From Klebsormidium nitens (Eukaryota; Plantae; Klebsormidiophyceae): a DNA stretch of 44,493 nucleotides. Position numbers and translations under genes: made by a program. The notes beneath the pieces were generated by a model. That model was given only the letters and a program-made list of their open reading frames with translations. It was not told the DNA's origin and made no database searches. The DNA lies in the NCBI GenBank assembly GCA_000708835.1, contig DF237639.1, positions 1-44,493 on the forward strand, read 5' to 3'. Shown here piece by piece: positions 137-21,065 of this stretch. Every line of letters starts with the position of its first letter. Position 1 is the first letter of the stretch.

Positions 137-864
137 GCACACTACAACGCGTTCCGAACAAGCCGCTTCAATTCTCTCAGTGCCTTCTTTACCGTCCGAT
201 GACTGGGGTCAAATGTCTAGACGGCTCCAAACTCCTGACACGTGCTCCGTTTGCTTACCGCTTGATGCTTTCAAATTCCATAATGTTGCACCCCCCTTGA
301 CGTCATCATGTGCGGCGCACAGAACAGGTACCGCCGGTCCCTGTTCGTCGTGGCAACCGGGCAGGACTCAAAAAGGTGGGCAAGGTCTGTGCAGGGCTAA
401 CGTACAAGTATATTGGGGCTGAAGCTGTCTTTCATATCCACTTGTTTTAGTGAATGTCATATTGAAAACAAGACTCAAGAGTGCTGATCAGTTATATGGG
501 AAGACATTTCTCTGCTAAATCACATATTCTATGGTGTCATAGCCCGCAAGCAGATAGTCCGCATAGTCCGCAGTCTCAAACTTGCTGCAGGTCCGTGGTG
601 AGCATTCTAACATTGCTCAGTCGACCTCAACTGCTTGGACTGCTTTTGATCAGAATCTTTTGTCAAACAGGGAGCTGAACACGTTACAAAGGACCCGAGC
701 TCTAGCTTGCAGGAAGTTGCTTCTGTAGCTGCCATGTCAAAGCATTTCTTATGGTCATTGTCAGCAAGTTACTTTGACATCAATCTGGGCAGGTCAAGTT
801 GCTGGGAGCTGAGGCCAAGTGGGTCCTGAACCAATTGGGCAATCACTGTTCTGGTGAAGCAAAG

Positions 865-3800
865 ATGGCTGACGACCTGGCAGAGGATGAAGTGAAGCTC
901 AGTCCACATCTTCAAGAGTGGATTGGTGGCTGGGTGGACTCCAAAAGCAAAGGCAATGACTGGACCCTGCCCTCGGTCAATCTCAAAACTGGGAAGCTAA
1001 GCAAACCACTCGATACCAGGTTCTGGCCGTCGTGCTTCAAGGATTGTCCGGATCCTGTCATTGCCAGCAGGGGACAGACGCGGGAGAAGGTCCTTCAAAT
1101 CTTCCAGAGTGCGGGCAAACGAGTATTCTTCTGCCATTGGCAGGTCCTCTACAACGACCTTGTGCCTATCATCTATTGCCCAAAGTGTGAACAGATCAAG
1201 AACCTGGAGGGGGATGGGTGGACTTTGGCGAAAGTGCGAAGGGTATGCATGCTGATTGGGCCAGCGTTCCTGGTGTCCAAGTGCTACCGCTGCAAGAAAT
1301 GTCCAGGTAATAGCATTCACAAGCCTGTCTTTGTCAATCACCTGTCGGTCAGGCAGTCCACTCCGGTGGCAAATGGTTTGCCAATGCCCTGTTTGGGGCA
1401 GCCCTGTCAGTCTGCATGCTTTGCAGCAATTGTACGAAGAGGACTTGCTCAACTTACTGAACTGGAGCTGAGCTATGATCAGGTCTTTTTTTTTGCCATG
1501 ATCCTGCTTTACTGGAGCTCCAAGTTTCCTGCTCTGGCCATGCTCTTTTGCAGAAAAGTGGTCATTCACTGGACATTTGACCGGACGCCAACATCTGAAG
1601 TCATCATCTCTAGATGACCTATTATACCCTGATAGACGTTATGTAATATGCAGGAAACGAAGGCAAGGACTACCAGTTTCGGGCCCACGACGAGGGCGTC
1701 ATCAAGCAACTATCAGCCGCTCTTGAAGCATCACTCAATATCCGCTTCACGCAGCACGGGGCAGTTGACGTGTCCCTGATGGATTTTCTGCTTCGCAACG
1801 TCAGCAGCGGCGTTGCATTTGCGGACTCAGCGGATGCGGTGCAAGAGCTGCATTACATCACTTATAACAGGAGCAAGTTGGGGCACATGCAGTACACCGC
1901 TGAGCGAGGGAAGCTCGCACTGAAACGTGCTTCGTACTTCAACAGCGCCACTGTTGCGTCAGGGCAGGTGCCACCTCCAGCAGATTTTGGGGCGTACGAA
2001 GACAAGCAGGGCTATAGGGGCTGGATTCCCTCGCGCTCGTACCTTACAAGTAAGCATCTGATCATTGGCACCTGCAGTCTGGCAGATGCCTTACCACTCT
2101 TGCTTTGTGGTTGACAAATTGGATTGGTACATCTTGTCATGCTCAGATTGTCTCAGCACGCTTTTTAGTCTTTCATTTGGAAAGTAGGGTCTTGCGATCA
2201 AAGCCAAACCTTGAAGCTGAGGTGCACAACGCTTGTATGTCTGCAGACTTTGTCGTGCATCAGAAAAGGCTGTCCCTGTGTGGATGTGGAATGGTGAATA
2301 CATACACTGAAACAGTTTGCTTATCCAATGTGGTTCTCTGATTACAGGGACTCTGTTGGCTTACTTGACAGAGCGGCTTGCCTGGCCTAAGGAGCGCCTA
2401 GCCATGGTTGACGGGCTCTACCTTCGGGGTGACCACACGTTCAGGTCTGCCTCAAAGGTCAAGGTTCAAGAGGGGGGCAAGGCTTATGAAGCTATGTACA
2501 CCGTCATGAACGGGTTCAGTAAGGTGGCCGCTCAGTGGATGGTGGGCGATACCTCGTTCAGGGAGATTGAAGGGGGCTTGCGCGACTTGATGAAGCGCTA
2601 TGAGGAGAACTTTCAGGATCGGGTAAGTCAGGATAGAGGTGATTGAAAGTCTTCTGGCTTTTTGAGATTCTGCACATATTTGAGCATAGTGTACCCTCTT
2701 GGCTTGTCTCTCATGACTTGAGGTAATCTCTTCATGGGGCAGACTGGCCTTGTCAAGATTGGAGCGGAAGACAAGCTGGGGGCTGTGCGATGAGATGATG
2801 AGATGCAGACTGAACTTGCCACCAGGGCCGTAATCGCATGGAACCCAGTTGAAGGCCCCCTCGTCAAGCTCTACGCCGTAATCCTCAGCAAAGACCCGCA
2901 AGATTGCATCTTGGAACTGTGTAATAACGCTTTCAAGGAACTCTCCCTCTGGCAGACCGGCGTCCCTCTCCATGTCTAGATACGGTTTACAGGGCCTACC
3001 CTCGACTAAAACTTCCTCCCCATGAGGCTGCCCTCTAAAATTGTCCATTGCAGTGGGCCAATCTGGGTACGATCCGTAACTCCTATACCCTTTGCCACGG
3101 GACAGGTGACGGATCTCAACCCTGTGACCAAGCAGAGCGGCAAAGCGCTTACCGAATTTCTGTGGCCCGTCTTTTGAATCTTTGCAACAGAGTCCAGGGA
3201 GGCTGGAAACTTTCCAAAAGAAAGACGTACCCAGCTTCATCTGTCGAATGATCTGAACGATGCCGCCCTGAAACTTTTCACTGTGCACAACCGTGCTTTC
3301 GGGAGGCAGATGTCGGATGGGGTGCTCGCTGCTTGGTATATCTGGAACGAACTTCGGAGGCTGCAGGAAGAAGAAGGAGAGCCACATAAGCTTTGAGCTA
3401 CACGACGTANNNNNNNNNNNNNNNNNNNNAAATGACCAGAGCGACCATGAGTACGGTGCAAGTGGTTAAGTGCTTGAACACCAAGCAATTGGGCATTGAT
3501 TCCGCAGTTGTTCAGCAAATCTGTGTGCAAGGTGGTGCTGGTCGCACGTCCTCGAGGGAGACTCAGGGGTGGTACTTAATGTGTGAGACTGGTCTTTAAT
3601 TTGTGGCTATCAATATGGTTAGCGGTTAATCCGGTCGAGCACGAAGAAAGATTGGCATGTCTAAAGGAGACCTCGTGTAGGGTGACTCTGCTGGTATCGC
3701 AATGAAGATGCTGATTCTTGATTCTAAACCCTTTGTAGGCGACTTCATGCGAGATCTGAGCCGCGCCATGTTTGTAATCAAGGCCGGGGACAAGGAGAGT

Positions 3801-6800
3801 CTGCGAAATCATCTCCTCCAGCGTGCCCGAAAGAAGCTGACAGCAAAGGAGATCGCCGCTAAGCCGGACAGGTATTGGAACACCCACTGCAGGCGGACAA
3901 TCCCCAAGAAGGAACTGCTGGCTGCGCGACTGGATGCTGTTTTGAAGAAGTACGAGATTGGGGGAAACGCCTGCGACGGGGATCCCCTTGTAACGAGGGA
4001 GCTGAACGAGGTGCACGAAAGGCAGATGAAGCTTGTCTGGGCAGGGGCACTGAGTGGTGAGTAGCTCCGCAATCATTGCATCTACAGAAGTGCTTCTTTG
4101 CAGGTCAAATTATCTTCGAGATCTCGTGAATACAAAAGATGTCGTTCTTGCTTCTTGTACGGAAAGGTTCGAACCCGGGGTGTAACAAGAGGCCAGTGCA
4201 AAGCGAACGTCAATCGTTTACTTAGACGCTGACCACTCATTCCAAGACAGGCTAAGCTTATTACATCTTTCTAGATCAGATCACGAACATGAACGCCCTG
4301 CGCTTCGACGTCACTCCATATTGCAAAAGTTCTGTCCTTAGGAGCACAAACGTCAAACGTTGGCATCAGAATACGTGTGGACTTCAAGGAGCCAAGTCGT
4401 CTGTTCTTCTGATGCTTCATTGTGTCTTTTTCAAACAGATCCGCTGGGAGTGGAGGAGATGTACTACGACGTCAGCAAACCGGGCTGCATGCCGCAATTC
4501 AAGAGCGTCCGCGGCACCTCCAAGCTTGAGGGCTATCACAAGCACCTCAACAGCCTGTTCGCCGGGGGGAATTGCTCGCCGGAGTTGGCCGACGCGCTGC
4601 TCACCATCTTCAACTACCGGTGGAACATCACTTGCGGCGTTGCTAACCGGGGGGACCAGGACTACAGCATGCACGATCATTTCCTTCTCGAGGAAATGCA
4701 GAAGGTCTGCCGGGATATGGGGTGGCCGGACCCTTTCCCGGAGTGGAAGAAAGCTCCTCCAACGGCTGAGCGCTTTGGGGCGGATAACCTGCCACCTGAG
4801 GTGCGGGAGGCACTGGAGGCAGCGGCAGCGATTGGGGAGCCCGCGCCCACAGAAGACGACTTGGAGGCCGTGGCTGTGGAGGAACTATTGGAGCAGCAGG
4901 CGCTTGCCAAGCAGGGGCGAGATGCAGGTAGGGAACTTAGCAACATTTCAACGAAAGCTTGGTGCTTGGACGTCAGTTGCCAGTGCGCGCAGTCTGTACA
5001 TACTGTTGCCGGTCTTGCAGCTGGGTTCCTGACCAGTACTTGCATGTCTTGAGGAGAACGTTTGGAGTTCACACCCTCGGAGGTCTTTCCATTGTGGCTT
5101 TTGAAGGGTTCAATATGTCAACCCTTCGCACGTGTGACGCAAAGTGCTCTGAGCATAAAGAATGCTGATCACTCAAGGAGACGCTTTGGTGGTCATGTAA
5201 TGTCTCATGCCTCCGCACCTTATCCTTTTTGCGAGTAAAACATACACTCTTTCTTCTATATCGCAGAGGCTCCTGCCAAGCTGTCCTCCGACCAGTTGTG
5301 TGCACCGGTCCCCGCCATCGCGGACCAATTGCACACGTTCCTGCCCCCTAGGCCCGACCAGGCGGGCGCGTCGCTCCCCCCCCACCCCGAGCAGTCGCGC
5401 TCGCCACTTGCCCCCCTCTCCGACCTGTCGCGGGCGCAGCAGCGCCCCCTCTCCAAGCAGGCGAACGCGCCGCTGGCCCCCCCCTCCAACCAAACGTGCA
5501 CGTCCCACCCCCCCCTCCTAATCAGTTGCGCGCGCAGCTCCCAACCCCCTCCGATCAGCCGCAGCCGTTCCTGGCCCCTCGCCCCGAGCAGTCGCCCGAA
5601 ATCCTCCCCCCCCCCATCGACCAGTGTCACCCGCAGCTGGCCCCCCCCTCCGCCCAGACGCGCGTGTTGTTACCCCCACCCTCTGACCAGTTGCATGCGC
5701 CGCTAGCTCCCCCCTCCGACCAGTGGCGCGCATCGTTAACCCCCCCCTCCGGACAGTCAAGCGCGCAGCCGCGCCCCCTTTTGGGCCAGTCGGGCGCATC
5801 GCTCTCCCCCCCCTCGGAACAATTGCGCACCCAGCTGCCCCCTTGCTCCAAACATTCAAGCGCGCAGCCCGCCCCCCACTCCCAGCCGTCTCGCGCGCCG
5901 TTAGCCCCCCCCTCCGACCAGCCACGCGTTGCGCTGCCCCCCCGCTCTGCCAATCAGCCGCGTACACCACTGGCCCCCCGCTCCGACCAGCTGCGCGCAC
6001 ACTTGGCCCCTGCCCTAAATCAGTGGCGCGCGCCATTGCCTCCATTTCACCAGCGCGACGCACAGCCGGTGCCGCCTTCCAACCAGCAGCAAGTGCCGCA
6101 GGGCACCCTCTCAAGTCCCAACCCCATGATGCATCCCCGGGCTCCCTTCGACCATCAGCAAGCGCGGTTTCCCAATGTTTCCGTTGCCTCACGGTCGCGA
6201 GTGCCCATGCCTTGCGAGCCGCTGCGAACGCTGGCGCCAGTGCTGGCTCCCGCCTCTATGGGGCAAAATGTACAGCTCCGAGCAATTCCGGCCCGGGTGG
6301 TGCAACCGCAAGGGCCGCAAGTCGTTGGCCCGTCCAAACGGAAAGACTCCGTTGGCGGTGCTGGAGTTGCTGGTAAGCTCTTGATAGGGCTAGCAGCACT
6401 TGCAATTTGCAGCATGTGAAGGGCGGAATCTGTAGTACTGGTCAAGGGCCTGGAGGTATGCACAGAAGAGGAAGTCGTGAGTCGCAACCCAGTCGTTGCT
6501 CGAACATCATACTCAGCCGGGCTAGAACAAGCACGGCTTGTATTGATCATCCATGGTTTTGCCTTGCAAGATCGTATCTCAGACTATGCTCTCTTTCTTT
6601 TGCAGTTGAAGGTGCGGCACACGCCACACCAGCAAAGCGCCAGAAACCAAAGCCGCAAGGAGCTCCCGTTCCGATTGGTAAGTGAATTGCTTTCGGTGAA
6701 GGGTTCTGAGTTGTGCTTTGTGTATTCTGATCTAGTGTATGACCTTGTTGTTCGAGCTCGACAACTGCATCGCAAAAATTTGGATCGTCAGGGAATCAAC

Positions 6801-7685
6801 TTGAGCGCCAATCATAAGAATCTTGAGCTGAGCACCCTGATTCTAGCTAGGATTTTGCAGTAAGCGAAACGACATTTTCTTTTCCTTGAAGCTGAGTTGT
6901 GTACTGCAGATCCGGATCCCTCTCTGCACACGTTGCCCAAGCAGCGAGCTACCACTGTCAATCGATCAGGCCGTCTATCATACCAGCGAAAGGTGGGATA
7001 TCGTATCCCAAAGTTCAGGGACCTTCAGCGGCCCGTTTCAACGACTGCAGAATTCGAGCTTTTTGACGAGTTGTTCTTGAAGTATACGAAGAGAACGTCT
7101 ACAGATTGGGATGCTTTTGGGCGGGAGTGGCATAACCGGGCCAGCTTATCTGCACATCGGGTGGAGGGGGCGGAACGAGCCATTCACTTCACGAGCGTTC
7201 CACTGCTCAAGCGACACCTTACTCTATCCTATAGGGCAGGGCTGCGGCGAGACTCTTTGAACAATCTCACAGCGTTGCGTCATCGTTTGCAGACAAGTCC
7301 GCTGCCCTCCATCCCGAGCGCAGCCACTCCGCACTTCCCCGATCCATTCACGTCCTTTCACACCACGCACTTACAAACCTCATTGCACGATGCGCACGCT
7401 CACTCATTCCACGCACCGGGCCAGCATGGAAGCTTCCAATATGTACCACCATCTTCTGAGTTGGCTGTAAATTGTGTAGCTCCGCTGTATAGTGGTCCCC
7501 TGGTATCTAGCAATCAAGTAGGGAAGCTAACGAAACAAAAAGCGGCGCCAACGAACAACCGAGGTGGGAAGGGGACCAAGAGGATTTGCAGAGAATGTCG
7601 AGAGAAAGAGTGCTTGGATGGTTGTTCGAAAAAAGCCAAGAGAGATGCGGAGGCTCAAAAGAAAGCAACAAGGACTAAGACATAA
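865..7685 (+). CDS. Spliced DDE transposase, Mutator/ISL3-like (resembles the DUF6729-associated type); one exon hidden in an assembly gap and one frameshift in a poly-C tract
   Basis: Phase-consistent GT-AG exons: 865-1306, 1654-2049, 2348-2622, (gap)-3455, 3739-4056, 4439-4927, 5267-6372, 6606-6677, 6910-7685. Motifs: N-terminal CPKC..GW..VRRV..YRCKKC; first catalytic Asp in LRGDHTFRSA..MYTVMN..VAAQWMV; DHEYG|DFMRDLSRAMF; catalytic Glu in RGTSKLEGYHKHL; C-terminal PVSTTAEFELFDEL..DW..FGREWH. The second Asp exon is not visible and probably lies in the N-gap at 3410-3429. Confidence 0.8.
2690..3165 (-). pseudogene. Fragment of an archaeo-eukaryotic primase (PrimPol / NCLDV-herpes type) catalytic domain, antisense within a transposase intron
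   Basis: ORF 2452-3387(-) contains KRFAA..GYRSYGSY..W..F..HGEEVLVEGRPCKPYLDME (motif I, DxE) and GKFSLHLII (motif II, SxH). Motif III and the Zn finger are not recognisable downstream. Confidence 0.75.
3410..3429. other. Assembly gap (20 N)
   Basis: Run of N. Confidence 1.
5284..6090 (+). repeat. Degenerate coding tandem repeat, ~33 bp / 11 aa unit (consensus like LAPPSDQxRAx), roughly two dozen copies
   Basis: Recurrent GCCCCCCC(C)TCCGACCAG and variants giving PPSDQ, PPSNQ, PPSEQ, PPSGQ, PRPDQ, PRSDQ. The frame switches near 5505-5520 in a poly-C run. Confidence 0.85.
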
Positions 7686-9319: not shown

Positions 9320-12300
9320 ATGGCGACAGCACAGGCGAGTCAAGTGGACGGAGCAGAGGCTTCTGGTGAGGGCGCAGCACAAGCCCCGCAGGACCGGAAA
9401 AGAGCTCGCGCTAGAGAGTACCTGGACTGCAACTTCAGAGATGCAGAAGGGGTTGACTGTGAATGCCCGTCCTTCTGTCAGCAGCAGGAAGGATTGGAGT
9501 GCTCATCCTGCAAGCACAAGCGGGGCTTCCATGCAGCAGATGAAGGTCTTCCAGAGCACGGCGTAACGAAATGCCTGCACAGTAACTGCCGCTGCCTTGA
9601 ATACGACAAAGAGCCGGGAGGCCCCTCTGTGTGCGTTAACTGCAGGCACTCCATACGAAAGCACACGAGTAAGCTTCAGGCAACATCAGTAGTGCCCTCA
9701 GCTCGTTGTCTTCCCAAGCAGGGCCTTCCACGTGCTTGCCCCGCTTGCTTTGTCTGGGAGCAGGCACTCTCCTGTGCTTCCCTGCTTGCTGAATTCTTGA
9801 GGAGGGACTCTCCTGTGCTTCAAAGCTTGCTGAATGTTTGAAGAGGGACTTTCCTGTGCTCGCCCTGTCTCAAGGGGGCCAACCCTTTCAAATGGCGCTC
9901 AACTGCTTGGCCTTAGCATCACCGCTGGTTCATGCAGAGGTGTTGTTCTGGGTCATGGGCTTTGGGACCAAGATGCACTTCAGGCACGGGACGTCGCGCA
10001 ACCAGGTTCGCCGCGCATTCGAGTGCGCTGGTCACAGGCCTGACCTGGAGCTGCTGGCATTTGAAGACGGGACCCTTGTTCCTGTTGGGGAAGACTTGAC
10101 TGGCGGCTACACGTACACGCTACAAGGAGGTAAATCTACTCGTCTTTGTTTCATGTCAGCCTGGTCCAGGGTCAGCGGGAATGAGGTGGCGCACCTGCGT
10201 TTTGCTTACTTCATCTGACGAAGGCCTTGTGACCGGCCCCCTCAGATACTTGACCACTCGTAAGAGCAGCGGGGTTCAAGTGATTCTGGCACACTCCTGT
10301 TCCTGGGAATGCGACACTGCTCTTCTCATGACTTGGACTGGCTGCATCAATCTGCAGACAAACGACCTGCGCGGGTATGTTCTTGGTCGGGCCCCATTGG
10401 AGAGAGGCCCCAATTTGACGAAATGACAGGCACCTACCCGATTCACAGCAGAGCATGTTCCTTCTCTCGTGTTTCTGTCATTATAATCTGAATGTCCATT
10501 TGCCCAGCATGTGACGCCCAGTCCCCTCCTCCTCTGCAGGTCCGGTCTTCTCCGGGCAGCCCCCCATGATGCACACCCCGTCATCATTCCTTCGACGCAT
10601 GTCGCAAATGGGGCGGCCAGAAGAGTTGGCCACACTCATCCCGGACGCGTGGCGGGAGAAGGTTGACAGGTTTCTGGAGCGAGTCCGGTCAGCGGAGAGC
10701 CGGGAGCACCTGAACAGCCTGCCTCTGACGGAGCTTAAAAACGAGGGGAACCACGGTCTGAAGACCGCGGCGTACGAACGGCTCAAGGAAATCCTGGAGC
10801 ATCTCATGACATACCTTCCAGTCGGTTTCCCTCCCCTCCTCTTAAAGCGAGAACCCACTCTGGCCCTGGGAATCAGCGTTCAAGGCAATAGGACGATGGA
10901 GGGTCGCATTGACCTGGTCGCACTCGACCCAGACTGGGAACTGGCCCGCAGCTGGAAGTCCGCTCTGACGTGGGCGGAGATGAAGGGCACGTCCAAAGGC
11001 CCCCAGCCGGCAGAGAAGGACTACACGGCCCAGAATCTCAGCAGAGGGGGCTCTGTCTTCTGCGCTCGGCGGGATTCGGGAGAGGGGGGGACTCAGGAGT
11101 TGCTCTGTATAGGCACAGACTCACGGAATGCAAGCTTCCTGCGCTACAGCATGCACCTAGCGCAGGAGCTGAGCAGGGGTTACTGGGAAAAGACGAAGCT
11201 CTACAAGTTGTTTGGAGACGACGGGGTTCTCATGGTCAACGGGGAGGGCTGCCGCGAGCTCCTGTACGTGCTGCTTCGCACCTCGGAGGTCATGAAGTGC
11301 AGGGAGGAGCAGAGGTTGCAGCTGGCAGCAGCTGCCGAGCCACAGGACTGGGAGCCCGGGAGGGATGGAGAGGGGGAGCGCGTCCCAGGGGCGCTGCGCA
11401 TTGCTGCGCGGGATGTGGCGACAGGAAGTCTGTCGGGGGGCGCGGGCGGAGTTTGCTTGGCAGGCGCCGAGGCTGCGGAAGTCTCGAGTGGGGCGAGGCG
11501 CATGACTGAGGTGGCCATCACCGGGGTTTTCGATGTGGGCGGTGCCTTGGCTGAGGCATTCAGGGGCTTGGTGGTTGCCCCAGTGTTCACCAGCGGGGAC
11601 CTGGCTGTGGTGCGAGACGACCAGGGGGGAGTGCAGACCTTCCAGGTGGATGGGCCCCCGCTGTCCCAGAGCTCGCGCGGCGCGGTGTACGCAGTGCGGT
11701 CTCTTGATGCACCGGGCACCCCGGCTGCGATCCTGCGGCACGGCCAGTGGACCGAGGGGGGCAGCATGTTTGTGGAGGCGCACACGGTTGCGCTGGAGCG
11801 GCTGCAGGGTGTGCATGGGCACCCCAGGGTCATTTGCAAGGGGGTCGTGGACCAGCCAGGAGGCGGTGAGGGAGGTCGGGCCACGGCGCTGGCGGTGGTT
11901 GAGTCGCATGAGGGGACCAGCGTGCAGCCGGGCTCCTTGGACAAGTACGGTGTCAGCCAGCTGGGGGCGAGCCTCTGCGCCCAGCTCGCAGTGCAGTCAC
12001 AGTGCGGGATCCTGCAGCGTGACCTCACCCTGGACAACGTCCTGGTGCGCGCGAAACGGTCGCCCAGGCCCCCCCGGTCTCCCAACCCCCTCCTGCGCAG
12101 CGTCTCTGTGGCTGACTCTGCCCAAACTTCGCGGAGCAGCGATGAGGGGTTCTTGAGCCTGCACTCCCTCTCTTCGTCCGGAGCGTCCAGCGGGGTTTGT
12201 TCACCGACCAGGCCCCGTCAGACCCACCCCTCTCCCTCGCCTACCAGCCCCCTGCAGACAACCCCGGCACCTCGCCCCGATTTGAGCAACGAGTTTGAAG

Positions 12301-12734
12301 GGCTGACCTTCACGAACTGCGACTTCGACCTGGCGGGGGTGGTCGGGGTGACCGAGCGGTTTGGTTTCCGGTACACAAACACCCCTATCGTCAAGAACAG
12401 CTACTTTCAGCCGCATGCTCTCTTCGTCGAGTACCTCACCGCCGGGGATGTGGCGCTCACGCTGGCGCTTGTGATGGCCACCGCTTATAGTGGCATGGGG
12501 GCTCTTCCTTGGGCGGACAAGGCGGCGGCAGCAGACGAGCACGCCGTGCATGCGGAGCTGCAGAGAGCGCTGACGGATCCATGGCAGCTCTTCGGCCTAG
12601 GGGAGGTGCACCCCCTGGTCGGACAGTTTGTACGCGAGGCCAAGGCGGCCGTGCAGTCGGACGCGCACTGGGAGAGGTGGAGCGCCAGCCTGCAGAAGGC
12701 GGCGGACGAGCTCAGCATCCAGCGGGGTAAGTGA
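9320..12734 (+). CDS. Crinkler/RHS (CR)-like multidomain protein: tandem Cys/His Zn fingers, Ubl-like domain, PD-(D/E)xK restriction-endonuclease-like domain, FunK1-like (possibly pseudo) kinase
   Basis: Exons 9320-9668, 9938-10129, 10540-12734, all phase-1 compatible. Two CxC-xx-F/Y-x(7-8)-CxxCxH-xxx-H units; EGRIDLVA..WAEMK..TAQ (D..ExK..Q); kinase motifs GILQRDLTLDNVLV and CDFDLA. A possible donor at ~12728 means further 3' exons cannot be excluded. Confidence 0.75.
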
Positions 12735-14592
12735 TGGGCCTCAGGTCAGCTCTGTGCATCGAGTTGTGGGCTCCACGGGCCATTTGCTTCCTCAGAATCA
12801 GGTGCGGCAAACATGCATGCGAGCTTCTGACGAGCTGAGAGAGGGGAGTGCGGTGTCCGTTTCCCGTCCTCCAGTCTACTCAAGATGCTACCGCAGATTT
12901 TGATCCTGCGTCTGTTGTGCTCGTCCTCCACTCACAAACAGCTTTTTAATGCCAGGGGTGCGCTGCATGGTAGCATCGTCCACCATGACTGTGGCAGATG
13001 GGCTTGTCGTTTGATAATGGTTTTTTTTGCTCTGGTACCAATTATACCCAACCTCAAATCTTGAAAGGAGGCTGTGTTTGGTTCGATAGCACCACAAGTC
13101 GATCGCTCTTGAGGAAACTCTCCATATTGCGTGCAGCGAGCCCAGGAAAGGGCAGCCGGTCACCCTCGCCGAGGAAGCAGGTCGAAGGTCGGCCACTCTG
13201 ATCGGTTGCGCAATTTGGTCTACCTTGAGTCATCAATGCTCAGCTTTGTTCGTGCAAGATCAATCAGTGACGTATTAGCTGCCTCTATGGCTGAGCGATA
13301 TGGGACTCTCAAAAAGCGATAAATTGAAATTGTTTGTTAGGGCTATCTGGTCTGCATGGCTTGACCCATGAGTTCATAGCTTTGGAATCAAGTGTGACGC
13401 AAATCATGCAACACATTGAAAGCTTTGTGCACACAATGTTCGATCTCATCTATCTTACCTTGCGCGCCACTGCTTGAAAGTATGCTGAGTACGAGTCGTT
13501 TTTCAATCACAATTTAGAATACTTTTGATACATACTTGTGAACATATAATTGATCATTTGAAGACGCAATTGCAGTGCTTTTCAATGCAAAGTGTAGCTT
13601 CAAAAGCCCATGCATGGCCAATGGAGCATCGTATGATAGACAAGTGTACTCTTCAATTTGTTGTGGTCCTATAGGCGGTTTGGCTGGATAGCTTCATCAA
13701 ATGCAACCGGCATATCTAGGTCAACGTTACAAATAAGGTTTGGCTCCCGATGACTCGATTTGTGCATATAGCGATTGCATATGAACGCATATTGATGTGC
13801 GTCAGTAACGTTTGTCCATGAAAATTCATGATGAAGGCGCAATGAAGGGGCATCATTGGGGCAAACACGTTCCGTATAGTGTAACTAACTCTCCATCCTT
13901 CAGATTTGGAAATGTATGTAATCCCTTCCAGACCAACGACGTGTGACTTGCACAAGCGACCTTGAGAGTCTGATGATCAATGACGGAATGGCAGGCGAAA
14001 GGACTGAACGAATATCTACAGTGCGGGATTCCTGTACCGAAGGATGTACTTAAGGTATGCCTACAGTACGAAAACATCAATTCGAAGGATGTACCTAAGC
14101 TGTTGTGAACGCTCGAACCACCTCGATGATCGGCGCTCGACACATTGGACAGGTTTCCGTGGTCTGTTGCAGCTGCCTTGCACAGTTATGGCATGCGCAC
14201 ATGTCTCCACATCTGCAATCAGAAAGGCCCTTGAGAAAGTGGGCGAATATCGCTACTGCTGCTACCGTAATTGCTTTGAAAACCAGCTCTCAGATGAATA
14301 ATGGTGGACTCCACGCTTGGGAAACAGAAGATTCTCGAGGATATAAAGAGGCTCCGTTGCATCCGGAGGCACCCCGTTGAAAATTGTGTCGCATGTTGCA
14401 AGGCGTCAGTATAAAAGCCATGTCAATACTCCGAAGGAGAAAGCGAATGCCACCAGCATACGTATTGGTCCACGAAGGGAGCTCGCTTCCGTGCGGCCTC
14501 TGCAAAGGATGTCGACAAGCTCTGCCGCAATCGCCTACCTGTACATCAGCGAGTCGATCGGGCTCTCACAGCACACGAAGCACACGCCTCTC

Positions 14593-17500
14593 TTAATGGC
14601 AGCGTGACTTGGAACCGTCCAAGTCCGTCTGGTATGCAGCGCTGATCTTGTTGAGCTCCCCGCAGCACACATTGCTGGCTTCCCGTCCGCTTGGGTCCAC
14701 CCTCCACACCGACCCTGTCCAGATGTACCACTTCTCGTTGGAGAAGACGAGCTTGTGGCCGGTGTAGATTTGCAAGCGATCAGTGATCTGCGCGCCACCC
14801 TCGTCACCTGCAGATCAGTGAGACGCTGGGGTGCTGCCCATAAAATCGAACCAAATAATCTGATCGGCCGGCCTAGTACTACAATTTTCGGGCAAGTCCG
14901 GCTAGAATAAAGACCCTGACACTCAGAAAGCAGCCACCCCCACCGTTGAAAGTGACACACTTCAGATCTACGAAGCTCCGAAAGTGTTGTTCGAGGATGA
15001 TTGCTTTCTTCATCCGGCTGATTTTCAACGGTAAAGATGAGCTCGAGAGCGGGCAGAGACCACAGGACGTACTTGGGAGTTCGTCAGAAAGCTGCTAGCC
15101 TGAGGAAGAGTGCATTCCTCTATTGACTCGTTCATCTCCTGTATGGTATCCCGGATTGCCGACTGGTTGATGCACGACAGAATTCAGGAGCGCTTTCTAG
15201 TCTGATAGGCCCAGAATTTGTGCAGGATCACTGGTTTACGAAACCTATGCACGACCATCCTGGCGCGACTCACCTGAGAAGATCGAAAGGTTCTGTTTCA
15301 AGAACCAGAGTGGAAACAGCTCCCGGTCCTCGTACAGTCAATCTCGCTCGCTGTTGAGGTGCTCTGCATCCGAGAACGCGGCCGCTACTGGGAAGGGGAG
15401 CCGACCCAGCTTCTTCTTCGCGCGGCCACTAGCGCTCTGGCACCGCCCACTGTGGCACACGTAGGTGATCTCCGTTCCTCTTCTGAGGAGACCAAAATTG
15501 TTGCTGTTGTGCCCCCGGTCCCCCGGCTTGAGGTGTGGGCACGACTCGCGGCCCCCTGGACCATTCCGAAAGTGGTACATAACAGCCCCTGGACCGGCGA
15601 CCGTGCTCGCTTCCGCGTTGCTGAAGACTGAAGTGTTCTCTCCGTAACTGCTGAGCAGGCCCCACAGGACCTCGACCAACGTCTTGCTACAGAGCAGCAT
15701 CCGCAAGATCCGGCGCCTTGGAGAAAGCGGACGGGGCCTCGACCCCAGACACTTTCTCGACTGCGACCTTGACTTTCATCCGCACTTTCGCCCCCCCAGC
15801 TGCCCTCGAAGCGCGCTCGTTCAGGATCCCGATGACCCAGTCGGGAAGCTGTGGCAGGGCATCTACGGCTGGCAGCTCCCCTCTGCTGGCCGCAGTGTAT
15901 CGCGCGACCTTCTCGCCCCGCTGGTAGGACGAGGGGGGGCACGCTATCATGCCGTTCAAGCTCACGTCCCGCATGTCCACCCCCACTTCCTTGAAGGACT
16001 CCTTCCCCATTTCAGGGTCCCGAGCCCTGAGCTTCAATTTTGCAAAGTGCATCAGGGTGTCTGCGCCCAAACCCGCCTCTAGACTCTTCTCACGCAAGAA
16101 GTATAGGTGAACCCCCCCGCTGCCTGTGCGCACTCGCGGCTCCGTGAACGAACCGTGCTCCCTCTCCCACTCAGCTAGCTGCTCCACGCCCCCGTCCGCA
16201 TGGTCGAAGTCCAGCACGAGAATGCCCGAGGCAGCTGTGTTGACCAGGAGAGTGTTGATAGGGGTTGAAGAAGGGGGGGGCGAGGCAATTGGTGATGGTG
16301 GACGCCGGCCAATCCTTGGGCGGCCTCATGCTCTTTCCGCCCTTCCCGCCCTTGGCGTCGGGGTCCCACTTGGTGTTTGCAGAGAAGACGGCGTATCCTT
16401 TCTCGACCATGCCCCGAGCTGCGGTTGCCTGCAAATGGATCAAAATTCGATTTCAGTTTTTCGGAGGCAGACTTGCGAACCGTTTACGAAATTTCAGCAA
16501 GCGCGAAAACTGCTGTCCGCGCTGTCTGCGCCGTCCATGGAGGGAAATTCGTAGTAGCTCAGGCCTCTACATAGACAGCACGGCTGTCAGCGCTTGTTGG
16601 GCTTCTGAAATGGCACGACATTCAACTAGGAAAAAGGCGGAAGATCATAGGAGTCTAAAAAGCCTTGTCTACGCTGTCCACGTTGTCCATGAAGAGGGAT
16701 CTGTAATTGTTGGTCTTCCTTCATGGACAGTACTGCTGTCAGCACTTGATGAGTTTCCACTGATGCGCAAGTCAGAGGAGAGATGAGGACAAACAAGCCT
16801 CTTGAAAAACCTTGTATATGTTGTCCACGCTGTCCATGAAGGGCGATCTCTAGCAGTAGGGCTTCTTTATTGCATACACAACACCGCTCTCCACACTTAC
16901 TGAACTTTCTGCGATGGAGCCTGCAAAGGACAGCCCTCCAAAAGCACTGCTGTACATGTGAAGAACTCACCATCTGATCTGCTCCGAGTTCCCTCTCTTG
17001 GTCTGCAAGGCGATGATCGTTGACAGAATCGACCGGCTCGAGGCAATCGGCGGCCCTGGCCGTGTCAGAGCAAGTCTCCCCGCCGTCCTCTTCGGAAGGC
17101 TCATCGTCAGCACCTTCGCAATCATCCTCGGCAGAGAATGATGCTCGCTGCGAGAGGGCCTCCAAATCCTGCAGAAATAACCTGAAATCTGAAAGGCTTG
17201 TCCGCGCTGTCCCCGTTGTCCGTGGAAGGAGGTCTAGATAGCTGGCTTCTCTTCATGGACAGTACGCTGTCAGCGCTGAGATCGTAGCGATTTCAAAAGA
17301 TGACTACAAAAGCACGCTTGTGAACTACACCAGGCAGTCAATTGAAAGTCACGAAACGAGAAGTCATGTTCACGTTGTCCTAGCTGACGCCCCTACAAGT
17401 GTGTGCCATTTGAAATGGAAGCGAAGGTCCAGGACTCTGTCCGCGCTGTCCATGTTGTCCATGAAGGGAACTCTCAAACAGGTGACGCTTAGCATAGACA

Positions 17501-17620
17501 GCGATGCTGTCAGCCTCACCGAGTCGTACCTGCCCATGGCTGTCTCAACGTCGACCTCCTCCTCGCAACCATCCCCGCGTGGCTCACTTGTTGCCTCAGC
17601 TGCGGCCCCTACTTCAACAT
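14593..17620 (-). pseudogene. Intron-containing bifunctional Prim-Pol + Zn-binding domain + D5_N primase(-helicase) gene, decayed, helicase part not seen
   Basis: Exons ~17520-17620, 16971-17168, 15274-16428, 14593-14807 with matching phases. Prim-Pol motifs ILVLDFD, RVRTGSGGVHLYF, VDMR..NGMIACPPS..Y..LPDWV. Zn motif RESCPH..HNSNNF..YVCHSGRC. D5_N-like GDEGGAQ..LVFSNEKWYIWTGSVWRVD. Lesions: frameshifts ~16255 and ~15700, in-frame TGA 15338-15340, TAA 14593-14595. Confidence 0.8.
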
Positions 17621-19880
17621 GTTTGCGTTTCCTGCCGCGTCCATGATGGGCGGCGGAGACGTCACACGGAACAGACAGCACAGCGTTTCATCGAAAAAAG
17701 GGATACCCTTGCGCAGCAATCAGCCTCATCAAGAGCTTTTCCCCACAAGACAGCCCTGCTGTCTACCAAGACAAGGACGCGACAAGGAGTTTGTCTGGAT
17801 GGACAGCTCGGACAGCGAAGACGGCTCTTATGATGTGGTCACCGCTTGGGATTACAGTTTACTACATGGCCTTGCCTCCGACGAGATTGGTGACTAGCCA
17901 GCCAAGCAGCATATCAGGGCCTGTTCTTGACGCACACTGCGCAGGGCAGTAGCTCACCTGATCACTGTTCATCTGGTTGCATTGGATGGGCTCTGCCCGT
18001 CTCGGCGATGACAACCTTTCCTTCACAGTCCATTGGCGGCAATCCTCCAGCACCCTGCATGGCATCGCATCATCAGTTAGTGACCTTGATCGATAGTAAG
18101 CAAAGCATCAGGGGGCTGGCCTCGACTCGCCGTCCATTGTGATTAGCTCGGACAGGATCAAGACCAGCTTTCATCTACAAACCGCTCTACATGGACAAGT
18201 TGGACAGCGTAGACACCATGTTTAGAAGCCCTCAGAACTCGGATCGACCGACCCTCTACGTTGACCAGTTGCACCGGTCCATGATGTCAACATCAAGACT
18301 CTTATCTGCTGTACTTGAAGCATGTTTCCAACTCTCAAGCTCACCTGATCGCTACAGTTCCTGTCACTTTCTTCACGAAGGCTTTTTTGAAATGCTTCAA
18401 ACGAGATACTAAAGAGAGTCTGCCTTGCGACTTCGTCTAATAGGCCCTCCATCTGGAAACGAGAAAGAGGGGTCAATGAAAACCATGCCAGTCTAATGCG
18501 TCTTCCACCAACACCGGACACCTCAGCCAAGCCTTCCTACAGACGAGATTTTTCAGCGTCAAATCAAACAACAGCCTGCAGGCAATCACATGAATGCACC
18601 GCTGCAAGAGATGCTTTCACCCTGAGTGAATGTCCACAACAAGTCTGACGCTATATGTGCACCTTTACAATCGTACCTTGGAATGCCTAGCGCTGCTAAG
18701 CTGTGTTGTTCACTGAAGTTCCTCTATTTTGCAAAAATGAAACATGCGATATAGCAGCACAGCGCCTGTGCGCGCTTGGCGCAACCTCAAGAAAGCAACT
18801 ACCTAGATAACAGAACACCAGCTCACAGAAGTCGACCACTCATGGCCAGTCAGCGGTGTCTTAGAGCGCATCTTCTGGCAGCACTGAGGGGACACAATTG
18901 GTGCCGAGCGGTTCAATTCTGGCAGTTCAATCCTGGCAGCATGCACCCTGGCCTTGGCATTGGCCCCCAAATTGGTAGTTGTATACTGGGAATGCAGCTT
19001 GCGGATTTTGTCATCTGATGTTTTCCCAAGTTTGACGTGGGTTGAGAACCTCAGTCACCCCAGGAAAAAGACGCTAGCAGCCTGGCAATGGAAGAGTGCA
19101 CCACCACCTCCAAGAAGCAGAAAGCAGATATACTCAGAAAAGGCCAAGATTGGCGACACTTACCTCAGAGACTCATTCTGTATGCCGCAAAAACCAACGC
19201 TTCATTTTGGTCATGCTTGTCTGAAAGGCTTTGAACTACAGGCTCTGTGTGAGGAGCTTCAAAGCAGGTGCTTCAGTCTGGCAGCATCAGCCGCGGGTCA
19301 GGCGCAATTGGCGCCCATGGGGGGCTTTACTTAGCTGATTCAAGACGGTGGCGGTTCTATCACATACGTCAGCAGTCCTAACGCTCTGATCTAGCTAGAT
19401 GCCAGAAACTCAGACACGGCGAAACATATGCTCTAGACTGCGGCCTACTCCTGGCGCCGCGCCACTTCGATCAGCTGTGCTGCCCAGCCTGTGCTGATGC
19501 TGAGCCTTCAATGAACTGGGCATCCCACCTGCTTCATCAGCCTACTTACGTGGCGAGGCAGTTACAGACTCTGTTTTTGCGAAGTGTATGCCGAGGCAAT
19601 TGAATGCAGATTCTGTTTTCTTCTTTCGGATCTCACGGACGTCCCCTCTGAGCTGTCTAGAGGTCACAAGTCCCTCTTCATGGACAGCGAGCTGTCAGGC
19701 CGCTCGGCGTCCGGTCCCTATTAAGCCGTGTCTCACCGCTGTCTCAGGTAGCCTGGCGTCCGACCAGAATTGTAATATTTAAGCTTATTCGGATTTTCCA
19801 GAGGCGTGTCTGAGCTGTCTGGGCCGTCTATGAAGAGGGCTCGTGAATGATATTCCGTCCCCACGAACAGCATGCTGTCC
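16512..19880. repeat. Dispersed family of ~80 bp structured sites: (TGTCY-N4)x3-ATGAAG..~24 nt variable..CTTCAT-GGACAG-N3/4-GCTGTC
   Basis: Complete forward units ~16512-16591, 16663-16745, 17197-17277, 17436-17515, 19807-19880; reverse unit ~17745-17825; half units ~16811-16845 (+), ~18190-18216 (-), ~19677-19698 (+). Confidence 0.85.
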
Positions 19881-20295
19881 GAGCTCGGACGGAGCGGTTG
19901 GGGAAACCAGGTCTGCCGAAAAGGTCGCGGCGGTGGCCGGTTGGGGGCTGGGGCCGGCGACCGGGGCGCGGCTAACTGCTAGGAGGGGGTACACGTGTAG
20001 CTTTGGGGTTGGTCCCTTTTATGCCGTTCAACAGATGGTTAGTTGGGCTGCGCTGCATATCCACATCATTTCATGTGTGAGTGTGTGTGTTGGTGAACAG
20101 CCTGGTAATATAACGTGGGCGCTGAGGAATGCCAAAAGCTAGCTGTTTTGGACAGCTTTCAACTCGCCAGCTGAAGCAAACGCTTTCTCTAGAGGCTGGA
20201 AATCTGGTGTGGCATTGCTTCATGCTGCTTGCTCGTCACGTCTGCTCACAATTGCGCAGGAATTGCAGGAAGCTGGGCATGATTGTGTCATAACC

Positions 20296-20938
20296 ATGAA
20301 CGATCAGCTGGCAGGCCTGGGGCTGCTGCTCTTCAGCATCAGTGTCTTTGTTTACTACACCCTCTGGGTCATTGTGCTGGTGAGACGGCCTTGCGAACAA
20401 CCGAGTACCATCGCTCATATTGATTGTCTGTATCTGGTTTGTTCAGTCCAAACAAACTATCTTTTCACTGCACCAGAATGGGGCGGTGAGATTGTGTTGG
20501 AGTACTACCAGATAAGATGACTCGAGGACTCCTGTTGTCTCGGCAAGTTTGAGAATTGTGCACCACTAAAGGTCCCCACTTCTGTGATTTATGCCCATAG
20601 AAGTTGCCTGGCATTTGCAACTGTACAAGTTGACTAGCACCTGCTGTGGGAAGATGCTTTCTTTGACAGTCAGGTGTGTTTGCTGCACACCGTAAGCTGG
20701 CGTGCGCCCATCTACTCCAGGACTAGCGCCCGTCAGTGTGCACAGTCTTAAGCTCTCTTTCCTGTGCACACTGCAGCCATTTGTTGACTCCGACCACGCC
20801 GTCCATAGCTACTTCCTTCCGCAAGAGTATGCCATTGCCCTACCAGTGGGGGCCCTTGTGCTGCTTCTGAGCTTCCTCCTGCTCTTCCTGGGGATCCTGA
20901 TGGTTAGAAGCAGGTTAGGAAAGAAGAAGAAAGCCTAG
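20296..20938 (+). CDS. DPM2: Dolichol-phosphate mannosyltransferase regulatory subunit
   Basis: Exons 20296-20379 and 20777-20938: MNDQLAGLGLLLFSISVFVYYTLWVIVL|PFVDSDHAVHSYFLPQEYAIALPVGALVLLLSFLLLFLGILMVRSRLGKKKKA. The YYTxWVIxLPFVD..H..FLP signature, two TM helices and C-terminal KKKKA match DPM2. Confidence 0.93.
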
Positions 20939-21065
20939 AGTACTTGAAGGTCAGAGGCTGGGTTGGAAACCAACTGTGCAAGCGGGGTACAATAGTCCAT
21001 GTCATCTTGGTGTGGGTGCGGAGTACGACTCCCTTGCTCAAGCAGTGGAGGAGCTAGATCCCCCC

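Follow-up and report, generated by a model that had tools for sequence, protein, structure and literature searches.

A transcribed, decaying primase-polymerase gene with a RING tail in Klebsormidium nitens and its intron-bearing AEP-SF3 family

Known AEP-SF3 systems and the Klebsormidium locus

Fusions of an archaeo-eukaryotic primase (AEP) with a superfamily 3 (SF3) helicase, also termed AEP-S3H, are standard replicases of Polinton-like viruses (PLVs) (PMC11161782). Recently, 12 AEP-SF3 genes were reported for Bodo saltans virus, 11 of which group with polisuvirus proteins; it was proposed, as speculation, that such genes need no integrase to move, being copied into broken DNA instead, and the report itself calls their autonomous mobility speculative (10.64898/2026.10.13.758929). 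Several giant-virus inserts have been described in the K. flaccidum/nitens genome, with the D5 cell for K. flaccidum left blank in Table 1 of that paper (PMC5294986). Endogenous giant viruses of green algae bear spliceosomal introns, and whether these arise before or after integration is presented there as an open point (10.1101/2021.11.30.470594); endogenous PLVs are described as intronless (PMC10120064). Here, a related gene from Klebsormidium nitens is analysed, which lies on the minus strand, from about 19626 to 13863, of contig DF237639.1 (assembly GCA_000708835.1). The whole stretch analysed, positions 1 to 44,493 of this contig, is referred to as the window, and all coordinates are given relative to it.

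The locus comprises seven exons separated by six GT-AG introns, as evidenced by joints in transcript-type contigs. It encodes a Prim-Pol domain, a C/H/C/C motif and the beginning of a D5_N domain and is disrupted by coding breaks; the helicase half is missing, and its place is taken by the two final exons of a RING gene of host type, while related genes with introns at shared positions occur elsewhere in the genome. The locus itself is thus a transcribed pseudogene, and its value lies in the view it affords onto this family. The description of the locus as such is very probably right. With moderate confidence, we regard it as a decaying, chimeric and still-spliced copy of a likely self-copying, intron-bearing AEP-SF3 element, the family most likely consisting of viral-type AEP-SF3 replicase genes in a new variant form, selfish and possibly self-copying.

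In common with Polisuviricotina PLV replicases and the mobile AEP-SF3 insertion sequences proposed for Bodo saltans virus (10.64898/2026.10.13.758929), the Klebsormidium genes display a primase-polymerase fused to an SF3 helicase, many related copies per genome and, at this copy, no integrase alongside. They differ in their position in a nuclear genome among host genes, their conserved introns, an N-terminal extension and their transcription. Moreover, the copies of Bodo saltans virus are reported, in the account given there, without flanking repeats, whereas the Klebsormidium locus carries a repeat array. Green-algal giant endogenous viral elements, including the inserts of nucleocytoplasmic large DNA viruses (NCLDVs) in Klebsormidium, likewise place genes of viral type, with spliceosomal introns, in the nuclear genome of an alga; they are, however, large blocks of viral genes, while the present family is represented by one gene between host-type genes at many loci.

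Gene structure, transcription and splicing

The stretch is present in 20 of 24 listed sequencing runs from 8 studies, none of which is recorded as RNA. Eight runs were aligned, of which X4, X9, X10, X13, X12 and X16 (six studies) are transcript-type, a status derived from their splice joints, and X1 and X8 are DNA runs from one sample, possibly the source of the assembly. All six introns are removed in the six transcript-type runs, while both DNA runs lack the joints (0/2). Hence, the introns have GT-AG ends, are gone from RNA and are present in DNA, as expected of spliceosomal introns, and a processed retrocopy as source of the joints is ruled out by their absence from X1 and X8. Coverage depth was 0 in bins 16505-16751 and 17246-17492 in three of four runs and in bin 19716-19962 in all four. 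The features of the locus, all on the minus strand, are as follows.

Exon 1, 19164..19626 (-): without long reading frame; contig ends vary, about 19480 to 19626
Intron 1, 18453..19163 (-): 711 nt, GT-AG; joint in 6/6 transcript-type and 0/2 DNA runs
Exon 2, 18345..18452 (-): about 85% match to one paralogous DNA contig (X1) and one paralogous transcript (X12)
Intron 2, 18055..18344 (-): 290 nt; contains one repeat copy
Exon 3, 17530..18054 (-): 3' part codes for a basic RGRKRKH stretch, also found in paralogue P0009
Intron 3, 17169..17529 (-): 361 nt (351 nt with the X16 donor 17519); contains two repeat copies
Exon 4, 16971..17168 (-): acidic N-terminal extension, 42% identity to P0009
Intron 4, 16429..16970 (-): 542 nt, phase 0; three repeat copies; position common to paralogues
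Exon 5, 15274..16428 (-): Prim-Pol domain, linker and C/H/C/C motif; two frameshifts, two stops
Intron 5, 14808..15273 (-): 466 nt, phase 1, within Gly before D5_N; position common to paralogues
Exon 6, element part, 14625..14807 (-): initial ~60 aa of D5_N; resemblance to paralogues is lost at about 14630-14625
Exon 6, host-type part, 14539..14624 (-): start of the RING-HC domain; in frame with D5_N until a frameshift near 14605
Intron 6, 14213..14538 (-): 326 nt, phase 2, within the RING domain
Exon 7, 13863..14212 (-): remaining RING (zf-C3HC4_3, E 1.3e-7), stop 14097-14095, 3' untranslated region

The RGRKRKH stretch of exon 3 is likely a nuclear localisation signal. For intron 3, the donor at 17529, which is out of frame, is used in five of the six transcript-type runs, and the in-frame donor at 17519 in one (X16). 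This run represents other alleles, and in the frame of exon 3 the stop carried by the window at 17690 is replaced there by a sense codon. Decay or splicing of the locus may therefore differ between strains. The spliced molecule of ~3.07 kb contains 45 ATGs, and its longest ATG-initiated frame encodes 121 aa (157 aa with donor 17519).

Domains and coding breaks

The Prim-Pol domain is recognised by PF09250 at 15687-16325(-) with E 3.7e-10 and 40.9 bits (cut-off 22.8), and its motifs could be located: DxD at 16211-16203, the His motif at 16109 and the third Asp at 15977. The C..H..C..C motif at 15541, 15511, 15457 and 15442 occurs with the same spacing in paralogues and distant relatives and represents a putative zinc site. 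From 14807 to about 14625, the start of D5_N follows with 57-63% identity to paralogues, a short piece that goes undetected by Pfam alone. In tblastn searches, paralogues align in four pieces with shifting frames from 16434 to about 14600, and six paralogues run against the window gave no helicase match past the ~60 aa of D5_N. The architecture of D5/P4-type primase-helicases, D5_N followed by an SF3 ATPase, is thus missing from this copy, whereas it is found in the paralogues.

Frameshifts near 16257 and 15678 and the stops TAG 15689-15687 and TGA 15340-15338 disrupt the coding sequence, and all four are retained in RNA. Contigs from X4, X9, X10 and X13 show no indels relative to the window, and a 7290-nt DNA contig from X1, covering 12670-19959, aligns with 0 differences and 0 gaps; an assembly error behind the frameshifts was rejected because of this agreement of transcript-type and DNA contigs with the window. 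Paralogous proteins are 58-69% identical to this copy, in which 21 of 171 family-invariant positions are altered, whereas nine of the ten paralogue rows show 0-12 such changes among 91-154 positions. This erosion fits a recent loss of constraint, perhaps roughly 5% neutral change by estimate. The gene model P0052 (KFL_006900040) covers part of the locus and hides its breaks.

An earlier note, prepared from the letters of the window, had already assigned the Prim-Pol motifs, the C..H..C..C motif and the D5_N start as well as two frameshifts and two stops, all of which are borne out by the domain match, the located motifs, the paralogue identity, the contigs and the RNA. Two of its introns, 14808-15273 and 16429-16970, proved exact, while for its third intron the in-frame donor 17519 is used in X16 and the out-of-frame donor 17529 in the other five runs. 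Two 5' exons with two introns, the RING exon pair with its intron, the frameshift near 14605, the repeat array and the transcription of the locus had gone unnoticed.

The Klebsormidium family and the age of its introns

The closest named proteins to the window, which reads as eukaryotic DNA, are Klebsormidium nitens models. Besides the locus, 13 named models on different scaffolds belong to the family:

KFL_013000030, 011390020, 004840020, 007660010, 002790160, 003010010, 005140020, 002930010, 010060030, 011440010, 010680030, 002360030 and 012450010

One further, more distant protein is P0073. Paralogues with an SF3 helicase, for which the earlier note had proposed a search, do exist: 11 of the 13 models carry this domain and form one clade with an SH-like support of 100. 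For the 890-aa protein P0005, the predicted fold (pLDDT 89) is that of a complete primase-helicase with Prim-Pol, a small beta domain with the C/H/C/C motif, D5_N, SF3 and a C-terminal domain; P0005 passes TIGR01613 (118.5 vs 108.7), and D5_N is found, whereas DUF5906 scores below its cut-off. Identity to P0005 across the family extends from 91-95% down to 32-44%, a range that suggests both recent and old copying.

Further information on introns is provided by 31 ORF-style fragments (ORF, open reading frame) that were aligned to P0005. Eight of them end and two begin at residue 390, which corresponds to intron 5 of the locus, and those ending there include sequences only about 45% identical to P0005. 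Other breaks occur at residue 641 (five ends) and 690-692 (four ends or beginnings), with further marks at residue 1 and about 530. Since the break at intron 5 is shared by paralogues with as little as about 45% identity, the introns appear older than the spread of the family, ancestral to it and older than the copies, rather than gained at this locus.

Transcription is also not confined to the present copy. Two paralogous loci are transcribed through D5_N at 80% likeness in X12, one of them also in X16, and one joins across the position of intron 5; their assignment to P0014 and P0004 was made by hand reading of the joint and loose-end letters. Hence, at least three family loci are transcribed in runs from two studies. 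In the open-access literature, including a search for Klebsormidium together with Prim-Pol, no earlier description of the family was found.

Wider relatives and origin

Outside the family, the best matches are the uninterrupted Prim-Pol/Zn/D5_N/SF3 proteins P0047, P0050, P0054 and P0057 from ENA and Logan contigs, with 29-32% identity over the whole length. The best BFVD match of P0005 is a D5-family helicase-primase of Bodo saltans virus (E 2e-40, full length), and its top PDB match is the PrimPol of African swine fever virus (ASFV; 8iqi, E 3e-25, about 15% identity). With NCLDV D5 and ASFV C962R, the family therefore shares D5_N, SF3 and the fold of the C-terminal domain, while it has PF09250 instead of AEP_C962R and the C/H/C/C domain where many of those proteins have PriCT_2; both AEP_C962R and PriCT_2 are absent from the family.

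Domain order and Pfam set are likewise shared with the P4-family primases of phages and plasmids (TIGR01613, Prim-Pol + D5_N + SF3). In helicase trees, however, the family lies outside the phage-type P4 primase rows, with support of 95 among 165 rows and 91 among 54, the latter being a chosen subset of the 165 that was analysed by quick search without bootstrap; the labels 'phage', 'PriCT' and 'Zn' rest on the Pfam content of the rows, on a regular expression and on a few names. The place of the family in these trees is next to the uninterrupted proteins named above and to proteins with PriCT_2. Phage matches, obtained with P0047 as query, cover the helicase half only, at about 25-31%. Three of six IMG/VR scans gave helicase-level matches of 25-35% and three were empty, and among 177 IMG/VR loci none of the top-scoring rows shown had the Zn motif. 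A GTDB scan gave 13 loci at 26-35% and a metagenome scan one unrelated Prim-Pol locus.

Two side observations concern this wider group. P0047, P0050, P0054, P0056-P0060, P0064, P0065, P0067, P0016 and P0017 form a clade of uninterrupted Prim-Pol/Zn/D5-SF3 proteins (SH-aLRT 98, 20 chosen rows) without close match in IMG/VR, GTDB or phage records. In P0070 (Coemansia sp., KAJ2655057.1), the gene model fuses compact Rpb2/Rpb1 RNA-polymerase pieces to a Prim-Pol/Zn/D5 helicase of the same group, which hints at an undescribed virus-like element in fungi.

Junction to a RING tail

At about 14625, the element part gives way to the two 3'-terminal exons of a host-type RING gene. Spliced RNA past this junction matches the C-terminus of the Coleochaete scutata RING protein P0042 with 56% identity over 79 columns (E 7e-28), the last exon reaching 76% identity to the Coleochaete protein. 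Intron 6 and the 3' end of the transcript come with these RING exons. With plant C-terminal RING-HC (zf-C3HC4_3) E3 ligases such as P0042, the likeness extends over the last ~60 residues, including the DGS-x-W stretch ahead of the first Cys, and the tail presumably also resembles Arabidopsis At5g04460. The locus differs from these ligases in having the tail only, frameshifted and with one ligand changed. The RING piece begins in frame with D5_N and is then shifted near 14605, and instead of eight zinc ligands in one open frame, seven of eight are found, with Asp in place of the His ligand at 14205-14203 and a frameshifted upstream part. Within the spliced molecule, 37 ATGs precede the RING Met.

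The 5' part of the RING gene is not located upstream of the locus, where DPM2 sits on the opposite strand. A second RING copy at 80% identity or above did not align in X1, and a RING search gave one candidate; neither result shows the source gene to be absent. We infer that the helicase half was exchanged for the RING tail through a rearrangement, the tail being either a captured copy or a relic of the original gene. The junction is a dated case in which exons were shuffled between such an element and a host gene. P0015 (KFL_005140020), the model of which ends in a response-regulator domain, possibly contains another join of this kind or else reflects a model artefact.

The RGACA repeat array

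Nine repeats of ~85 bp lie between 16506 and 19881, in the 5' part of the locus and nowhere else in the window:

16506-16591, 16658-16743, 16806-16894, 17192-17274, 17432-17514, 19640-19698 and 19801-19881 (-): repeat copies
17749-17824 and 18166-18220 (+): repeat copies

Their conserved core consists of RGACA pentamers, arranged as an inverted pair followed by three direct copies 9 bp apart. The repeat profile was seeded with six of the nine copies, and the remaining three were found independently with E 5e-6 to 5e-8, compared with a best value of 0.32 in 10 shuffles. At no more than one mismatch, the triple-pentamer gave 8 matches, all within 16536-19829, while 20 Markov controls gave 0-2 each even at 2 mismatches. 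A stable hairpin is absent in eight of the nine repeats, one reaching z below -2, and Rfam returned 0 matches for 13000-21000. Because of this poor folding, the repeats look like protein-binding sites. Iteron arrays occur at origins of SF3 and P4-type replicons, and the array is a possible origin or set of binding sites. Sequences matching the copy in intron 4 at 80% or above occur in other contigs, as seen from loose ends at 16563, although paralogous proteins share only 58-69% identity with the protein of this locus. A common genome-wide miniature inverted-repeat transposable element is disfavoured by the lack of repeats in the other 40 kb of the window and in 178 prokaryotic and viral loci and by a small rise in DNA depth.

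Course of events and alternative explanations

In the favoured course of events, an uninterrupted AEP-SF3 replicase gene of a small DNA virus or related replicon would have entered the nuclear genome of an ancestor, where at least five introns and the acidic N-terminus with its basic patch would have been gained once, before the family split. Copies would then have multiplied as DNA with their introns kept: the intact protein may load as an SF3 hexamer onto the RGACA array in the 5' introns, unwind and prime, whereby its own locus would be copied into DNA breaks without an integrase. Subsequently, a rearrangement near 14625 would have put the two terminal exons of a RING gene, with its last intron and 3' end, in place of the helicase half, and the chimera would have accumulated three frameshifts and two stops while promoter and splice sites were kept. 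That the family is or was self-mobilising is plausible, with doubt slightly outweighing belief. A bolder and rather unlikely version is a capsid-less, integrase-less class of nuclear DNA transposon in Klebsormidium, in which one intron-bearing primase-polymerase/SF3-helicase gene binds its own RGACA iterons, copies into breaks and picks up host exons. If true, the AEP-SF3 insertion sequences proposed for giant viruses would thereby have a spliced counterpart in a cellular genome, and intact transcribed copies would be available for study.

Klebsormidium is culturable and has copies both near-identical and divergent, some of them transcribed, together with a candidate cis repeat. Hence, the mobility of AEP-SF3 genes becomes testable by strain comparison. 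The family also bears on the timing of introns in endogenous viruses, as its introns appear to have arisen once and then to have been copied.

Several points weigh against the decaying-copy interpretation. At the locus, there was no match to an integrase or transposase and no element ends, terminal repeats, target-site duplication or empty site could be recognised, and transcription of several copies fits domestication equally well. The longest transcript-type contig runs from 19626 to 15270, none of those listed carries all seven exons or covers the transcript in full, and at the two 3' joints the short side comprises 23-30 letters. Intron positions in paralogues were taken from where ORF-style calls stop, not from DNA; two fragments (P0062, P0072) run across residue 390, some of the 31 are one locus seen twice, and the paralogue gene models may hide breaks as P0052 does. 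The sister of the family differs by tree, with Zn-type rows at 83 (165 rows) and PriCT_2-type rows at 84 (54 rows), and the Bodo saltans virus match could correspond either to the core D5 or to any of the 11 additional copies. Finally, an enrichment of methylation has been reported for viral genes in K. nitens (PMC12344493).

The best surviving alternative, though an unlikely one, is a single domestication of the family as a host nuclear primase-helicase, serving in repair, re-priming or antiviral defence, which grew by segmental duplication and of which the locus is a dying duplicate. Conserved introns, the basic N-terminal patch, at least three transcribed loci, strong conservation among paralogues and directly adjoining host genes such as DPM2 would all be accounted for. 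However, a named orthologue from another plant or alga was found neither among 31 matches nor among 20 representatives looked up, the other named protein being from one fungus; instead of one orthologue across plants and algae, as for a single-copy host replication gene, the clade is lineage-specific. Furthermore, many copies are partial or broken, and for 7 of the 13 named paralogues the longest contigs measure 9-18 kb, as repeats would give. Searches, trees and the BFVD match thus support the view of the earlier note that this is a virus- or mobile-element-type gene and no conserved single-copy host gene; of the endogenised self-replicating element proposed there, the viral type is supported, while self-replication is what we infer.

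It is clearly improbable that the copies are replicase remnants of integrated Polinton-like or giant viruses, with capsid genes beside other paralogues or deleted here. Such an origin would agree with the AEP-S3H replicases of PLVs, with the giant-virus inserts and introns cited above and with a second AEP fragment, of C962R type, at 2632-3408. The neighbouring capsid, packaging ATPase and integrase genes for which the earlier note proposed a search, however, had no match among the window ORFs scanned with Pfam, PHROGs and NCBIfam (21 + 21, 7 and 11 queries, partly overlapping, of 215 stop-to-stop ORFs), a scan that could miss spliced or decayed genes. Of 107 inverted pairs in 1-22000, the 25 longest include none that bounds the locus. 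Accordingly, a PLV is indicated at the locus neither by capsid plus packaging ATPase nor by integrase plus terminal inverted repeats, and an NCLDV D5 insert neither by an AEP_C962R/PriCT_2 architecture nor by viral neighbours. The family lacks both these domains, the D5 cell of K. flaccidum is blank in the table cited above, endogenous PLVs are described as intronless, and the Zn motif appears in none of the top-scoring IMG/VR rows.

It is very improbable that the chimera has served or still serves the host, at first through a Prim-Pol/Zn-RING fusion protein and at present through a regulatory non-coding RNA or small RING peptide. While the in-frame junction, the conserved RING last exon and splicing retained across six studies, one strain with other alleles among them, speak in favour of such a use, in-frame joins arise by chance in one of three cases, the RING is frameshifted, has lost its His ligand and is preceded by numerous ATGs, and family-invariant positions are eroded. 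The decay claimed in the earlier note is accordingly supported by breaks and eroded positions, but incomplete as an account, since the locus is still spliced and lost its helicase by the RING join. The remaining proposal, taken from that note, of a single endogenised gene that gained introns in place during a long nuclear life can practically be dismissed, as the introns are real and canonical but introns 4 and 5 are common to paralogues, intron 5 down to about 45% identity, and intron 6 arrived with the RING piece.

Neighbourhood of the locus

To the right, the locus is flanked by the host genes DPM2, SDH5 and L28, of which DPM2 directly adjoins it. On the left side, a convergent gene that is spliced and has no Pfam match is followed by a region with a weak DUF6729 match and the other AEP fragment. 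The convergent gene, at 10515-13567 (+), comprises a 739-aa ORF spliced at 12725/13136 in X12 and X16; kinase-like and nuclease-like motifs are seen by eye, and searches of Pfam, PHROGs, NCBIfam and PDB gave no match. The multi-exon gene region at 778-7685 (+) displays DUF6729 with E 0.07, a proline-rich tandem repeat of 18 copies of 33 nt at 5346-6029 and a cluster of Cys residues at the C-terminus, and we take it to resemble a transposon-type gene. Antisense within it, at 2632-3408 (-), lies the second, unrelated primase fragment of PrimPol/C962R AEP type, which scores 0.95 to AEP_C962R clusters in the ESM Atlas, below the reliable level of the tool, and E 0.08 to human PrimPol. Near the contig end, at 37-146, a palindromic unit with 50-nt inverted arms occurs twice, possibly as terminal structure of the left element; its translation matches D5_N with E 0.16-0.97, probably by chance. 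Just upstream of DPM2, at 19985-20047, a 40-60 bp sequence without Rfam match is matched by many DNA contigs (summed depth 60 vs 18) and represents either a dispersed short repeat or a shared promoter element.

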